A stretch of 4,502 bases of DNA from Dictyostelium discoideum. Taxonomy: Eukaryota. A program made the translations under genes and the position numbers. Below are positions 1-4,502 of this stretch, one piece after another; the first letter of the stretch is position 1, and every line of letters starts with the position of its first letter. The DNA lies in contig CH709155.1 of NCBI GenBank assembly GCA_000004695.1, positions 1 through 4,502 on the forward strand, given 5' to 3'. The notes beneath the pieces are model-generated. The model ran no database searches and was not told where the DNA came from. It saw only the letters and a program-made list of their open reading frames with translations.

Positions 1-160
1 CGAAAACAACTAAGGTAGTGTTTGCTGGATTCAAAGAGTTCAAGGTACAGAAATTGCGGAATCTTGTATAACTGGAGCTATATACTTTGAGAGTTAGGGG
101 TTCCCGAGACTTCATTAACAGCTCAGCTGTTTTTGTATTTGTTGTACGAGCGAAGGACAT
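1..160 (-). CDS. putative tyrosine recombinase ORF, N-terminal 53 codons; continues past the window start
   Basis: On the minus strand, ATG = rc(158-160) and overlaps the TAA of the upstream ORF (TAATG). All 53 codons to the window edge are open: MSFARTTNTKTAELLMKSREPLTLKVYSSSYTRFRNFCTLNSLNPANTTLVVF. The pattern TLK.Y....F..FC....P......V.F resembles the N-terminal core-binding region of tyrosine recombinases. That similarity is from memory and no search was run. Confidence 0.35.
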   Translation of the reverse strand, partial: MSFARTTNTKTAELLMKSREPLTLKVYSSSYTRFRNFCTLNSLNPANTTLVVF

Positions 161-690
161 TACATGAGATTGGAAAGTTGAATAATCCCCAGCTTCCAAC
201 GTTGTTGAATCTGGGTTGGTATCGACTCTACTGATTGTTTGGTCAATACTTCTTGGAATGTTCCCAGTACTTGAGGAAACATGTGACGATGATGACGAGG
301 AACTTGAGCTTGAATCATCGGAAACCAAGTTGCTGATCTCCAGATTGGGAAGATCAGTATTATAGAAACCTTCTTCGAACTGGATGAGTTCATCTTCTCC
401 AGGATAGAAGGCAAAAGAATGGGTGGTGGGAAGGCTAGATATTGCTCCCATTGACTCCAATCGAGGTGGAGTGCATTCATTCTGATTGTTGAGTAGTTGT
501 TCGTTTGATGGTTGAGGTGAGATGCGAACAGATCCATCTGTATTTGACCGAATTGAAGTTGGATGCGATTGAACACTTCCTTCTTCAGTTGCCAGTTGTA
601 ACTCTTGATTACTCTGGACGATGATTTGTGATTCATCTCTGAAAGACGACTGAGGTGGTCGGCTTTTACATTGAAGAATCCTGGAATGTG
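160..690 (-). CDS. DIRS-like ORF3 (RT/RH/MT polyprotein) C-terminal fragment: RNase H end plus DLFAS/methyltransferase-like domain
   Basis: This is the ORF-track 160..711 reading on the minus strand. Residues LHIPGFFNVKADHLSRL match the terminal RNase H motif of gypsy/DIRS elements. Downstream, IQMDLFASHLNHQ...ALHLDWSQWEQYLAFPPPILLPSILEKM...KKVSIILIFPIWRSATWFP matches the DIRS DLFAS domain as I remember it. Codons above 690 are read-through into an unrelated fragment. Confidence 0.75.
   Translation of the reverse strand, partial: HIPGFFNVKADHLSRLSEMNHKSSSRVIKSYNWQLKKEVFNRIQLQFGQIQMDLFASHLNHQTNNYSTIRMNALHLDWSQWEQYLAFPPPILLPSILEKMNSSSSKKVSIILIFPIWRSATWFPMIQAQVPRHHRHMFPQVLGTFQEVLTKQSVESIPTQIQQRWKLGIIQLSNLM
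666..690. repeat. 25-bp direct repeat, copy 1 (ttacattgaagaatcctggaatgtg)
   Basis: It matches 1640-1664 at 24 of 25 positions (g688 versus a1662). It encodes HIPGFFNV on the minus strand. Confidence 0.9.
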
Positions 691-959
691 TAAGAAAGCT
701 AGCCAAGTCAATCAGAAAGAACAACGAAGCAAAACAATCATTGTTAAAATTGAATTATCATTCCAAGCCCAATGTCAAGAAATTAGTTAACTCAAGTGGT
801 AATAACACTACAGGAAACAGTAGTAATAGTAAATCCAGTAGTGGGAGTAATGGCCGATCTAACAACTTCAATGGATCACCAAGTAGTGTTGCATCAGGTA
901 GCAACAATACCAAGTCTGCCAACGGTACCAACAACCGTTTTCAGAAGAACAAGAAGTAA
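690..959 (+). pseudogene. gag-like ORF1 C-terminal fragment (N/S-rich tail ending NNRFQKNKK*)
   Basis: Frame 0 reads VRKLAKSIRKNNEAKQSLLKLNYHSKPNVKK...NNRFQKNKK, stop at 957-959. The near-identical reading occurs at 4022-4291 as the end of the long ORF1 of the second copy. No upstream ORF1 body is present here. Confidence 0.6.
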
Positions 960-961
960 AC

Positions 962-1040
962 TTACCAGTAGGTGGCGTCTGTTCCACCCACAAACAAGTT
1001 TGGAAAGAATTGGGTCTTCCAAACTTTTGTCAAGAGGTCC
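962..1040 (+). pseudogene. ORF3 (RT-containing ORF) extreme 5' start fragment, truncated at 1040
   Basis: The frame beginning at 962 reads LPVGGVCSTHKQVWKELGLPNFCQEV. This matches copy 2 at 4294 onward (LPVGGRLFHHKQVWKELGLPNFCQEVVNGLKVHLL...), which continues into an RT N-terminal region. Confidence 0.45.
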
Positions 1041-1150
1041 CCGCCCTTAGTCGGAATTCCATAAATCAAATTGTTTTAGTTTTTAGTGCCACTATTTATA
1101 CGTTTTTATTTTCTTAAAAATTTCGCAAAACTCAAAAAAATAAGAGTTTT

Positions 1151-1268
1151 CGACCCTTCACAACTTTGTGCATAGTGTCGGTTCGGAATTTTTCAGTTTT
1201 TTCGACCTTGCGCAATGATCGCGTCATTGTGCCGGTTCAAAATTTTTACTTTTCTTTCGAAAATTTTT
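1151..1268. repeat. diverged tandem duplication, about 54 bp x 2.3 (ttcgacc...ggttcRRaattttt)
   Basis: Unit 1 is 1151-1203 and unit 2 is 1204-1258, about 70% identical. A partial third unit, tttcgaaaatttttt, follows. Confidence 0.6.
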
Positions 1269-1275
1269 TATTCTT

Positions 1276-1295
1276 CGAATGTTCTAGAACATTCT
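1276..1295. promoter_or_regulatory. heat-shock element: four contiguous perfect nGAAn/nTTCn units (cGAAt gTTCt aGAAc aTTCt); 1277-1294 is an 18-bp perfect palindrome
   Basis: This is an exact match to the alternating 5-bp HSE consensus over 20 bp. The DIRS-1 terminal repeats of Dictyostelium are reported to carry heat-shock promoters (established knowledge). Confidence 0.55.
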
Positions 1296-1347
1296 AAAAA
1301 ATTATCTTAAATATTTGGGAAATTCAAATAAATAAATGTTATTCATA

Positions 1348-1363
1348 ATATATATATATATAT
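1348..1363. repeat. (AT)8 microsatellite
   Basis: atatatatatatatat. Confidence 0.9.
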
Positions 1364-1485
1364 TTAATATAAAATATAATTTAATAAATTAAATTTTTAA
1401 TTAATTTTTTCTTTTTTTTTTAAATCTTTTTAATTTTTATTTTTAAAGTGATATTATTAATATATCTTATCAAGTTAACTTTATT

Positions 1486-1575
1486 AAGTATTATTATTAA
1501 GTATACTTATTAATTATATAATTATTAAGTATACTTAATAAGTATAATTAATTAGTATACTTATTAAGTACACTT
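1486..1575. repeat. array of palindromic AT-rich units built on ttaagtatacttaa (a 14-bp perfect palindrome) and attaagtatacttattaa variants
   Basis: There are four or five copies in both orientations, for example 1494-1511, 1525-1538, 1553-1570, plus a 9-bp-arm inverted repeat ataagtata...tatacttat. Confidence 0.65.
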
Positions 1576-1592
1576 TATAATAGTACTATTTA

Positions 1593-1811
1593 CATTCCTA
1601 CTTTAAAGATGCTTTTAAGGTTTTTTTTCGCCCCCTGTGTTACATTGAAGAATCCTGGAATATGCTCTCCAATCAAGTTCACTTTCTTCTTGAGGCATTG
1701 TTTCCAAAGTTGTTCGAACAGAACTGAGAGATCTTGTATCTGGCCACCCTGGCGATTGATGTAAGAGAGAGTGGTAGTGTTGTTACGTCCGTTATCGCTT
1801 AATTGGACGAT
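1593..1811 (-). pseudogene. RNase H fragment of DIRS-like ORF3 (SDN...TTTLSYINRQGG...LWKQC...LIGEHIPGFFNV), detached from its continuation at 666-690
   Basis: The minus strand reads *IVQLSDNGRNNTTTLSYINRQGGQIQDLSVLFEQLWKQCLKKKVNLIGEHIPGFFNV, then junk (TQGAKKNLKSIFKVGM*). The SDN..TT..YIN+QGG and HIPG..N motifs have DIRS/gypsy RNase H spacing. The frame is bounded upstream by TAG, the reverse complement of 1812-1814. Confidence 0.7.
1640..1664. repeat. 25-bp direct repeat, copy 2 (ttacattgaagaatcctggaatatg)
   Basis: See copy 1 at 666-690. The two copies bracket a 949-bp block. Confidence 0.9.
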
Positions 1812-2165
1812 CTATTAATCGTCGGTTCAACAAAAGAAGAATGTTTATCCAACCTCAAAAAGACACTGGACTTACTTGTCAAACTAGGTTTCAAGTTAAA
1901 CCTAGAAAACAGTGTTCTCGAACCAACTCAATCAATTACGTTTCTCGGATTACAAATCGATTCTGTATCAATGAAGCTCCTTGTTCCCAAAGAAAAGAAG
2001 AAAAGTAACATCAAAGGAAATAAGAAACTTTTTAAAACTAGATTGTTGCTCCCCAAGAAAGCTTGCTGGTTTAAAAGGAAAGTTAATCGCACTGAAAGAT
2101 GCAGTCATCCCCTTCAGACTTTACACTCACATCACAGCGAAGAAAAAACCACCTTTAAAGCAAAT
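1803..2165 (+). pseudogene. reverse transcriptase fragment (from the LDD of the YxDD box through the thumb) with one frameshift near the A-run at 1990-2006; truncated at both ends
   Basis: Frame 0 reads LDDLLIVGSTKEECLSNLKKTLDLLVKLGFKLNLENSVLEPTQSITFLGLQIDSVSMKLLVPKEKK. Frame 1 then reads VTSKEIRNFLKLDCCSPRKLAGLKGKLIALKDAVIPFRLYTHI. Together this matches the RT pattern YLDD.L....T.EE....L..VL..L...G..LN..KS.L.P.Q.I.FLG..IDS..M...LP.EK...I......LL......V..R.LA.L.GKL.A...AV.P.RLYTR. The Y codon position is TAA (1800-1802). Confidence 0.8.
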
Positions 2166-2320
2166 TTAAATTTAATTTAAAGCGAATTTAAAGTCCTGAA
2201 TTAAAGCCAATTTTAAAGGTAATTTTAAAGGTATTTTTTAAGGTTACTTTAAAATCACCTTAAAAATCACCTTTAAAATTACATTTAAAATTAGCTTTTT
2301 AATCGCTTTAAAAGCTAGGT
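2160..2320. repeat. degenerate minisatellite of roughly 12-bp period with a TTTAAA core; unit orientation flips at about 2246 (aattttaaaggt x3 versus acctttaaaatt-type units)
   Basis: Units are aatttaaagcg, aatttaaagtcctg, aattaaagcc, aattttaaaggt, aattttaaaggt, attttttaaggt | tttaaaatcacc, ttaaaaatcacc, tttaaaattaca, tttaaaattagc, tttttaatcgc, tttaaaagc. The right half is the reverse complement of the left-half unit. Confidence 0.75.
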
Positions 2321-2333
2321 CCTTAGTTCGAAG

Positions 2334-2347
2334 CCGTTAATTAACGG
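2334..2347. repeat. 14-bp perfect palindrome ccgttaattaacgg
   Basis: It is identical to its own reverse complement. Confidence 0.9.
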
Positions 2348-2391
2348 ATAAATTTTTTAAATTTTTTTTTTAATTTTTCAAAAATTACCAA

Positions 2392-2426
2392 AAGGGATTC
2401 GATCCCCCGACCCTTTATCAAAGGGT
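2392..2426 (-). other. tRNA-like half-molecule: anticodon-arm-like hairpin (ACCCT-TTGATAA-AGGGT, anticodon GAT) followed after 1 nt by a T-arm/B-box-like GGGGG-ATCGAAT-CCCTT. Not a complete tRNA gene
   Basis: On the minus strand, 2410-2426 forms a 5-bp stem with a 7-nt loop whose loop is TTGATAA. Positions 2392-2408 read GGGGGATCGAATCCCTT, a 9 of 11 match to the B-box GGTTCGAATCC. No D-arm or acceptor pairing partner could be found upstream. The variable region would be 1 nt. Confidence 0.3.
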
Positions 2427-2481
2427 AGTCTCATCAACCATTTCACCATTTGATTGCTTTGATGCAAATTTAAAATTGATT

Positions 2482-2503
2482 GTAAAGTATTTTGATACTT
2501 TAC
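2482..2503. repeat. perfect 9-bp-stem hairpin gtaaagtat-tttg-atactttac
   Basis: The stem arms are exact reverse complements. Confidence 0.85.
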
Positions 2504-2800
2504 GAAGTTCGGGTTTGGAAATCTAAAATAAAAATTAAAAAAATAATAAAAATAAAATAAAAACATTTTTCGTTTTTCGAAAAATTTAGTTTTTCACTTT
2601 GAATACAAATAACAATATTAGTATTATTTATTAATTTGAATTTCTAAACATCTATTTAATTTATACATATTTAACTATAAATTTAACACTTTTATTTTAA
2701 CTCTTTGATAGTACTGGCCAGGCTTAATTAAAGAGAGATTTTCAGATTAAATCACAATAAATAAAATAAATTAAATAACAACAACAACAACAACTACAAA
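2504..2800 (+). other. AT-rich leader upstream of ORF1: candidate 5' terminal or promoter region of the element copy starting at 2801
   Basis: The region is non-coding at about 15% GC and ends in (AAC)n running into the ORF1 ATG at 2801. No HSE of the quality seen at 1276-1295 is present. Its identity as a terminal repeat cannot be established from this window. Confidence 0.3.
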
Positions 2801-4291
2801 ATGAATAAAACACCAACAATAACAACAACTACAACAACTACACCACAAATTAAGAAGGATCTACATGAAAATGAACAAGGAAAGAAGGAGCTAATGGATA
2901 AGCTCAACGAATGTAAAAGTGCATATGCTATATTAAGCTCAAAGGGCCACGCACTTGAAGGTGAACTAAAATGAGCTAAAGAAAGTAGAGACGAATACAA
3001 ATCAAAATGTGAACAATTAATCGTAGAGAGAGGAGGATTCAAAAGCACAATATCAAAATTGCAAGATGAACTAAGTATATATATATATATATTACCAGCT
3101 AGTCGAGGTATACAAAACACCAGCCACTGAGAAGGCAGGTATAATGGAAGAGGAAGAGACCGAATCAGAAACAACTAGTAATGATAGAAGAGACACTCAT
3201 GCTAAACCAACTCCATCAAATGAATTCATCAGTATTGTTGAACTTTTCATCAGTGAAGGTGCCATCACAGCACTTGAAAGAGTAAACTGGTTATTCTCCG
3301 TATATAATGTTTATGAAATCAGATCAAGAATTCACTATTTGATTACAGGCGTCTTCAACAGACCAAACGAAACAAGAGACACACTCTTGAAAGTAGCCAA
3401 TGCCCTCAACAACTGTCTATCATCAGAAGAGAAGACAGATTAGAAGAGAATTATAGAAATAGTCAAAAATTGCGACAACTCTTCAAAACATAAAGCAGAA
3501 GTTTGGGATGCTTTCGTTAAAATTAGAACATTAGGTGTCAACTTAGATGGTACTAATCTCGAAGCTTAGATCTTGAAGTGGAACAAAGCAAAACTCTATT
3601 GGAGTACTGCTTTGACAACCAATGAAAGATTTACCAATTTACTAGGTGGACTTCACGAGAACGTAACGCTTGAAGTATTAAAACTCAAGGAGGCACTAAG
3701 TGAAGAACAATTCGCTGAATCTAAGCAAGACCAATGGTTCACATGGATCAGAAAATCGGTACAAACTATTAGCGAATCAACGATAGCTTAAAACCTTTGC
3801 TTCTCATGTCAAGTATGTTATCATCTGATAGCTACAATGTCGATATAGAACTTATTAGTTATTTAACTCAGAGTGCAATCGTCTTAGCCGTTAATGCTCA
3901 AGCATCGCTTAGTCGTGTCCGTCGTAACAACATCGCTAAAGAAATCTATGGTTCTGAAGCACTCTTACCAATTAAGATCAAGGATACACCAAAGATGTTT
4001 GATGAAACTGAAACTGAACGTGTAAGAAAGCTAGCCAAGTCAATCAGAAAGAACAACGAAGCTAAACAATCATTGTTAAAATTGAATTATCATTCCAAAT
4101 CAAATGTTAAGAAATCAGTTAACTCAAGTGGTAATAACACTACAGGAAACAGTAGTAATAGTAAATCCAGTAGTGGGAGTAATGGCCGATCTAACAACTT
4201 CAATGGATCACCAAGTAATGTTGCATCAGGTAGAAACAATACCAAGTCTGCAAATGGTACCAACAACCGTTTTCAGAAGAACAAGAAGTAA
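2801..4291 (+). pseudogene. gag-like ORF1 with three premature stops and two frameshifts
   Basis: ATG 2801 begins MNKTPTITTTTTTTPQIKKDLHENEQGKKELMDKLNECKSAYAILSSKGHALEGELK, ending at TGA 2972-2974. The same frame runs on through ...KSTISKLQDELS. A frameshift then occurs inside the (TA)n tract at 3076-3092 (codon phase 2 to phase 0). The frame continues ...IMEEEETESE... with TAG at 3441-3443 and TAG at 3567-3569. A second frameshift falls at about 3773-3790 (phase 0 to phase 2). The frame then runs to NNRFQKNKK with TAA at 4289-4291. The heptad-like, charged and N/S-rich composition is typical of a gag-like protein. Confidence 0.7.
3076..3092. repeat. (TA)8.5 microsatellite inside ORF1
   Basis: tatatatatatatatat. 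The reading frame of ORF1 changes across it. Confidence 0.9.
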
Positions 4292-4370
4292 ACTTACCAG
4301 TAGGTGGACGTCTGTTCCACCACAAACAAGTTTGGAAAGAATTGGGTCTTCCAAACTTTTGTCAAGAGGT
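4020..4370 (+). repeat. second copy of the 351-353 bp segment also present at 688-1040
   Basis: See feature 688-1040. Identity is about 96-97%. Confidence 0.85.
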
Positions 4371-4502
4371 TGTAAATGGATTAAAAGTCCATCTACTTCC
4401 AAATTTCAAGCCGATGCCAAACCCAATTCCGATTTCAATTCCAGAGGGTCCGAAATCAGATTGCATCACACAGGAAGTACAAGACTTGTTATTAGACGAT
4501 GC
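4294..4502 (+). CDS. start of DIRS-like ORF3 (RT polyprotein), partial; continues past the window end
   Basis: The frame is open from 4234 (after TAG at 4231-4233) to the window end: LPVGGRLFHHKQVWKELGLPNFCQEVVNGLKVHLLPNFKPMPNPIPISIPEGPKSDCITQEVQDLLLDD. It overlaps the ORF1 end in the -1 frame. The only in-frame ATG is at about 4421. Confidence 0.5.

Follow-up and report, generated by a model that had tools for sequence, protein, structure and literature searches.

A predicted heat-shock element in the right terminal repeat of an internally deleted, nested DIRS-1 copy of Dictyostelium discoideum

Introduction

The terminal repeats of DIRS-1 in Dictyostelium discoideum reportedly contain an active heat-shock promoter, which is said to have been described in 1984 by Zuker and colleagues (PNAS 81:2660) and by Cappello and colleagues (MCB 4:591); a heat-shock promoter in the inverted terminal repeat of DIRS-1, there also called Tdd-1, was reportedly described in the same year by Cohen and colleagues (MCB 4:2332). 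The heat-shock factor trimer binds at least three inverted nGAAn units and activates transcription by RNA polymerase II. In Arabidopsis, the LTR of the retroelement ONSEN/ATCOPIA78 carries heat-shock elements that are bound by HSFA2.

DIRS-1 is a 4814-bp element with an 88-bp ICR composed of 33 + 55 bases (PMC7192593), and definitions of its ITR, ICR and right extension (rE) have been given (PMC3266345). Retrotransposition requires the ICR, and the start of transcription is placed at the LTR's inner edge (PMC7192593). A 4.5-kb mRNA is transcribed from the left LTR, an antisense RNA of 900 nt, termed E1, is induced by heat shock or stress and is not expressed in axenic growth, and the right LTR alone drives GFP and probably also the long antisense RNA lasDIRS-1 (PMC3950715). 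PMC2685390 ascribes heat-shock promoter activity, in yeast as well, to the DIRS-1 repeat and, citing Zuker 1984 and Cappello 1984, reports heat-inducible transcription for the DIRS-1 repeat family.

Here we describe one such repeat in a 4,502-nt stretch of D. discoideum DNA, referred to below as the window. The motif at its center of interest is very probably the standard heat-shock element of the DIRS-1 terminal repeat; because the heat-shock promoter of these repeats was reported in 1984, the motif is already known and ordinary. The copy that carries it is a deleted one, nested inside another DIRS-1, and we delimit its parts and compare its element with those of related repeats. For these comparisons we used nine GAG-encoding loci, L001–L003 from D. 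discoideum, L008 from D. cf. discoideum, L004 from D. firmibasis, L005 and L007 from D. dimigraforme and L006 and L009 from D. citrinum, which together amount to 158 kb.

Results

Four contiguous heat-shock units in a low-GC stretch

The 18-bp perfect palindrome GAATGTTCTAGAACATTC lies within the 20-mer cGAAtgTTCtaGAAcaTTCt, in which GAA and TTC alternate through four perfect units at 5-bp spacing (local sequence ...ttattcttCGAATGTTCTAGAACATTCTaaaaaa...). By sequence, a heat-shock element is recognized from a run of three or more inverted nGAAn units spaced by 5 bp; here there are four, all perfect. Exactly four units are in register, since the next unit on the 3′ side reads AAA (2/3 bases) and the TTC upstream, at 1274-1276, is out of register with the element. 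Palindromy also covers the six 'n' positions (tg/ta/ca), which goes beyond what the heat-shock consensus requires. The surroundings of the element are low in GC (20-34%). The pattern GAANNTTCNNGAANNTTC has one exact match in the whole window and none in 200 dinucleotide-preserving shuffles of it. Allowing 2 mismatches adds just one match in the window, which overlaps the exact one, and at this stringency two or more matches occur in 20 of the 200 shuffles. Both the exact 20-bp match and the palindrome had been claimed in a first-pass annotation made from the letters alone, and both were placed correctly.

A full-text literature search for 14-mers of the motif found no open paper that quotes them, and a search on the Dictyostelium heat-shock factor, its binding or heat-shock elements found nothing specific. 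We take GAATGTTCTAGAACATTC, the sole heat-shock-element match in the repeat, to be the element mapped in 1984.

The repeat is the right end of an internally deleted copy

The coordinates of all segments are collected in Table 1. The presence of DIRS-1 in the window is evident from the ORF at 3797-4291, whose product is 95-96% identical to D. discoideum proteins that are DIRS-1 ORF1 (GAG) products. The stretch from 1040 or 1061 to about 1400 corresponds to a repeat of ~340 bp, five copies of which were found by BLAST in L001 at 90-95% identity, some of them flanking GAG-pol units. Matches to terminal repeats extend over 315-364 bp at 90-95% identity and lie at L001 16056-16417, 9863-9533 and 5296-4983 and at L003 13121-13482 and 9862-9549. 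Those directly upstream of GAG (L001 9533-9863, L003 9549-9862) match the window in reverse complement only; those downstream of pol (L001 16056-16417, L003 13121-13482) match it in forward orientation and at greater length, covering 1040-1400 at 94.8% identity. Left repeats diverge past the (AT)n run and are without the right extension. Moreover, 1346-1400 is 100% complementary to L001 15990-16044 and L003 13055-13109, which form part of the right ICR just upstream of the intact right repeats. In the right ends of L001 and L003 the order is ICR, a spacer of ~35 bp (AGTCCCATCCCACCCGCCCTTAGTCGGAATTCCAT), the repeat beginning with AAATCAAATTGTTTTAG..., (AT)n and the right extension ending in ...TTTAATATAAAATATAATTTAATAAATTAAATTTTTAATT, and reverse-complementing the outer 55 nt of the right terminus gives exactly the right half of the ICR. 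This layout agrees with the published definitions (PMC3266345) and with PMC7192593.

Table 1. Segments and features of the 4,502-nt window.
Feature	Position	Strand	Evidence
Host DIRS-1 ORF3, methyltransferase-domain region, interrupted after 686-690	1..690	-	92% identity to L001 20546-19859; Pfam Dam PF05869, E = 1.4e-11
ORF1 (GAG) 3′ end and 79 bp downstream	684..1038	+	96-100% identity to window 4016-4370; 96.6% to L001 10559-10909
Native spacer remnant, 22 bp, between ICR and right repeat (canonical AGTCCCATCCCACCCGCCCTTAGTCGGAATTCCAT)	1039..1060	+	Comparison with L001 16041-16075 and L003 13106-13140
DIRS-1 right inverted terminal repeat, inner end to (AT)n run	1061..1363	+	Homology to L001/L003 copies; part in common with left repeats, inverted
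TATAAATA box, probable core promoter	1093..1100	-	Conserved in repeat copies
Heat-shock element (very probable)	1277..1294 (20-mer 1276-1295)	.	Exact match, 0/200 shuffles, recurrence in repeat copies
Right extension (rE), ending ...AAATTAAATTTTTAATT	1364..1402	+	Complementarity to L001/L003 ICRs; marks right end, not left
End (~237 bp) of another AT-rich repeat element, X, not DIRS-1	1403..1639	+	L001 matches with the same terminus
Host DIRS-1 ORF3, continued	1640..1783	-	94% identity to L001 19883-19740
Reverse transcriptase	1788-2128	+	BLAST against L001
Non-DIRS-1 segment	2129-3770		BLAST against L001
ORF1 3′ end and start of next ORF	3771-4502	+	BLAST against L001

At the junction 1038/1039, the sequence downstream of ORF1 (CAAGAGGT) is joined to the spacer (CCCCGCCCTTAG), the last 22 bp of which are kept. 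The 88-bp ICR that precedes an intact right repeat is deleted here, and no other copy of it was found in the window. Its loss reflects an internal deletion and is no argument against identifying the repeat as a right one. Because the spacer lies on the inner side of the repeat and rE on its outer side, and because the repeat is oriented like the ORF1 fragment, as expected of a right repeat, 684-1402 is best read as a single DIRS-1 copy that is 5′-truncated and has lost ~3 kb internally, including the ICR. Over 1061-1345 the window repeat is 94.1% identical to the D. discoideum consensus, with 17 differences, none of which falls within the element or the TATA box. We conclude that 1277-1294 is very probably the heat-shock element of a DIRS-1 terminal repeat.

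Three of the 17 consensus differences (at 1167, 1209 and 1239) are CpG-to-TpG/CpA changes, which would fit the DnmA methylation of the DIRS-1 LTR reported in PMC3950715; three are too few to test.

The first-pass annotation had located the motif in an AT-rich block, 1041-1639, that interrupts an element, adjoins a truncated ORF1 fragment and lies inside another copy, and had proposed that the whole block was promoter DNA derived from a DIRS-1 terminal repeat and placed there ectopically. The interruption, the terminal-repeat origin and DIRS-1 identity, the neighboring truncated ORF1 (its 3′ end) and the nesting in another copy (in its ORF3) are all borne out. Alignment of the block with DIRS-1 termini succeeds as far as 1402, through spacer, right repeat and rE (~60% of its length), and fails over 1403-1639 (~40%), where element X begins. 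Ectopic placement is also contradicted, the repeat being the natural right end of the deleted copy.

The surrounding mosaic

The stretches 2-690 and 1640-1783 are contiguous in other DIRS-1 copies, and 684-1040 together with the low-GC stretch that follows interrupts a minus-strand DIRS-1 ORF3. The right terminus of the deleted copy is joined to an unrelated AT-rich element, and the two form a 949-bp composite within ORF3 of another DIRS-1. Nested DIRS-1 clusters of this sort are typical at D. discoideum centromeres. The window has seven mosaic junctions; with up to 3 mismatches allowed, the 158 kb sampled contain no further instance of any of them.

The composite insert (691-1639) is flanked by a 25-bp direct duplication, 666-690 versus 1640-1664, with 24/25 bases in common. 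Integration of DIRS elements is said not to duplicate the target site (PMC3266345).

Element X contains 13-bp near-palindromic tandem repeats (TTATTAAGTATAC) and has the terminus TTTTCGCCCCCTGTG. It matches L001 15715-15936 at 83% identity and L001 13285-13527, in reverse complement, at 75%, and all three stretches share the terminus ...CTTTAAAG(A/G)TGCTTTTAAG...TTTTCGCCCC(C)TGTG. Its structure points to a DNA transposon bounded by terminal inverted repeats, with the 13-bp repeats in subterminal positions; the DNA transposon families known in D. discoideum are Tdd, DDT and thug (PMC5633606). A reading of 1040-1639 as one long variant terminal repeat was rejected, as the DIRS-1 match stops at the canonical terminus near 1402 and the remainder matches a separate element with termini of its own. 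In L001, two X ends in opposite orientation (13285-13530 and 15380-15936) enclose 2.65 kb of DNA inserted into a DIRS-1. This insert is flanked by TTAAATAC on one side and ACTGCCG on the other, compared with uninterrupted TTAAATACTGTCG in L003, and its insertion possibly produced a 2-bp duplication.

A fragment of DIRS-1 reverse transcriptase on one side and GAG from residue ~106 on the other enclose the 1.64-kb non-DIRS segment at 2129-3770, which probably represents one more mobile element in decay. Its ORFs are degenerate, 2801-2974 being coiled-coil-like and 3144-3791 having two in-frame stops, and an (AT)n run occupies 3070-3095. The sole match within it is 2521-3036, with ~69% identity to L003 17342-17768, and Pfam searches with the ORFs of 2801-3791 returned coiled-coil noise only. 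Assignment of 2801-3770 to the GAG N-terminus and of 2470-2800 to a left terminal repeat was discarded: the segment lacks residues 1-105 of the GAG of intact copies and resembles neither a terminal repeat nor DIRS-1. At 2201-2312 there is a long, loopless hairpin with 48-nt arms that are 88% complementary and made of 12-bp CTTTAAAATCAC-like repeats; Rfam gave only sub-threshold matches to miRNA families for it. Stretches resembling a tRNA T-arm occur on the minus strand at 2395-2465 of the window (GGGGGATCGAATCCC) and at ~13530-13600 of L001 (GGGTTCGATTC), and neither ARAGORN nor Rfam found a tRNA gene at these stretches. A scan for bacterial promoters and terminators, inapplicable to a eukaryote, gave no more matches than chance.

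Recurrence of the element in DIRS-1 repeats

Eighteen repeat copies were aligned and then scored for the element. In D. discoideum, 8/10 repeats (the window counted) have the exact four-unit element at the same alignment position; one of these eight has an A at an 'n' position that breaks the palindrome and leaves all four units in place (GAATGTTCTAGAAAATTC). The other two carry either a 2-bp deletion or a G-to-A change in the first unit. The 158 kb contain nine exact four-unit matches, and since all nine are inside copies of the DIRS-1 terminal repeat, the motif is a fixed feature of the D. discoideum repeat and no chance match.

Other lineages differ. In D. cf. discoideum the element is exact in 2/5 copies, and a central 1-bp insertion (TTCTAAGAAC) breaks the 5-bp register in the remaining 3/5. 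The five D. citrinum copies are without the element and have GAATGTC(G/A/T)TTTCGGCATTC instead. Only a dimer, GAAAATTC, is found in the three copies from D. firmibasis, and the segment that holds the element is absent from the two from D. dimigraforme. In the repeats sampled from the other species, the TATA block is still present, as is the outer ~70 bp.

The absence of the element from the repeats sampled in three other species is a minor new point, and because the element is not conserved there, DIRS-1 biology does not depend on it in general. This absence from D. citrinum, D. firmibasis and D. dimigraforme would be consistent with a recent gain of the perfect four-unit element by DIRS-1 in the D. 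discoideum clade, an interpretation that we regard as tentative and rather unlikely, given a small sample in which the copies may not represent active lineages.

Promoter position and predicted transcripts

Read inward, the TATAAATA box, at 1100-1093 on the minus strand, follows the element after 176 bp and is separated by ~30 bp from the repeat's inner end, a position that fits the published start (PMC7192593). The sequence CACTATTTATAC is invariant in the copies from D. discoideum, D. firmibasis and D. citrinum. The distance of ~176 bp between element and TATA box is greater than in typical hsp promoters. Any transcript of this copy would most likely start near 1065 on the minus strand, downstream of TATAAATA. 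A start near 1300, as proposed in the first-pass annotation, is unlikely, since DIRS-1 transcription begins at the inner edge of the repeat (PMC7192593).

Under heat or other stress, a heat-shock factor trimer would be expected to occupy the element and to activate RNA polymerase II at the repeat promoter. In a complete DIRS-1, the left repeat would then give rise to the 4.5-kb sense mRNA and the right repeat to the inward antisense RNAs, 900-nt E1 and lasDIRS-1. In the window copy, a heat-activated factor at 1277-1294 may stimulate minus-strand initiation near 1065, and the resulting RNA would be chimeric, running first through the ORF1 fragment (1038-684) in antisense and next through the methyltransferase region of the host copy (690-1) in sense.

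Discussion

Our comparisons place the palindrome at 1277-1294 in the right terminal repeat of a deleted DIRS-1 copy. Taken alone this carries little weight, the heat-shock promoter of the DIRS-1 terminal repeat having been textbook knowledge since 1984. Its value lies in the annotation of a nested locus, in which the bases of terminal repeat, spacer, foreign element and host copy can now be told apart, and the anatomy of the locus shows where a heat-induced chimeric transcript would be expected. Without an ICR, which is essential (PMC7192593), and without most of the coding sequence, the copy cannot retrotranspose; its element is nonetheless intact.

Whether the element acts at this locus is a separate matter from what it is. 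It could be an intact but silent relic that owes its preservation solely to the youth of the copy (94% identity to the consensus) and gives no transcription; we place this at about even odds, and it competes with function at the locus and not with identification of the element. The copy is defective in several respects (internal deletion, no ICR, truncated ORF1), and it may be silent because DIRS-1 clusters, which are centromeric, are heterochromatic and are controlled post-transcriptionally by RNAi (PMC3950715, PMC5633606); E1, moreover, is absent under axenic growth (PMC3950715). Against silence, neither element nor TATA box is damaged, the right LTR by itself acts as a promoter in a reporter (PMC3950715), and heat-shock-induced DIRS-1 transcripts were, to judge by the title of Zuker 1983 as cited in PMC3950715, originally seen as a family of RNAs from many copies.

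Far less probable is that the palindrome has been kept for some other purpose, as the site of a dimeric protein encoded by the element or the host or as a cruciform used in replication or recombination, and that its match to heat-shock units is incidental. Such a role would account for palindromy at the six 'n' positions, which heat-shock factor does not need by its consensus, and would accommodate a motif specific to the D. discoideum clade in an outer repeat that the species otherwise share. However, the D. discoideum copy with GAATGTTCTAGAAAATTC has lost the palindrome and kept every unit, heat-shock promoter activity is attributed to the repeat, also in yeast, in PMC2685390, and the presumed sites of action of the tyrosine recombinase, the termini and the circle junction, are ~110 bp away (PMC3266345, PMC7192593). 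Chance occurrence of GAA and TTC in AT-rich DNA unrelated to DIRS-1 termini is already refuted and has a negligible probability, for although both triplets are common in an A+T-rich genome and 20 of the 200 shuffles give two or more matches once 2 mismatches are allowed, none of the 200 gives an exact one, and the identical 18-mer sits at a fixed position of homologous repeats and nowhere else in 158 kb.

The species comparison offers a small lead on when DIRS-1 became heat-responsive. DIRS-1 expansion is reported to be unique to D. discoideum (PMC5633606). If a gain of heat or stress inducibility coincided with that expansion, it could have helped DIRS-1 to take over centromeres.

Among known systems, the DIRS-1 (Tdd-1) repeat promoter is the closest: organism, element, ~340-bp repeat and position of the heat-shock element are all shared, and the window repeat is 94% identical to the consensus. 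The window copy differs from a complete DIRS-1 in being reduced by the ~3 kb deletion to a right end and an ORF1 fragment, without the ICR, and in being nested, together with a foreign AT-rich element, inside another DIRS-1.

Compared with canonical eukaryotic heat-shock elements, the window has four contiguous perfect units where three suffice for a heat-shock factor trimer. It also contains two overlapping 13/14 matches to the Pelham box CTnGAAnnTTCnAG of Drosophila hsp70, namely tTcGAAtgTTCtAG at 1274-1287 and CTaGAAcaTTCtAa at 1284-1297. In contrast to canonical elements, the predicted element of the window belongs to the terminal repeat of a transposon, has its nearest strong TATA box ~176 bp away and is fully palindromic, spacer bases included.

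ONSEN/ATCOPIA78 offers a parallel from plants, in that the terminal repeat of a retroelement carries a stress-response element of the host and transcription of the element rises in heat. The two differ in architecture, ONSEN/ATCOPIA78 being a Ty1/copia element with direct LTRs and an integrase, whereas DIRS elements have inverted repeats and a tyrosine recombinase. They share no sequence homology, and their heat-shock elements are independent acquisitions.
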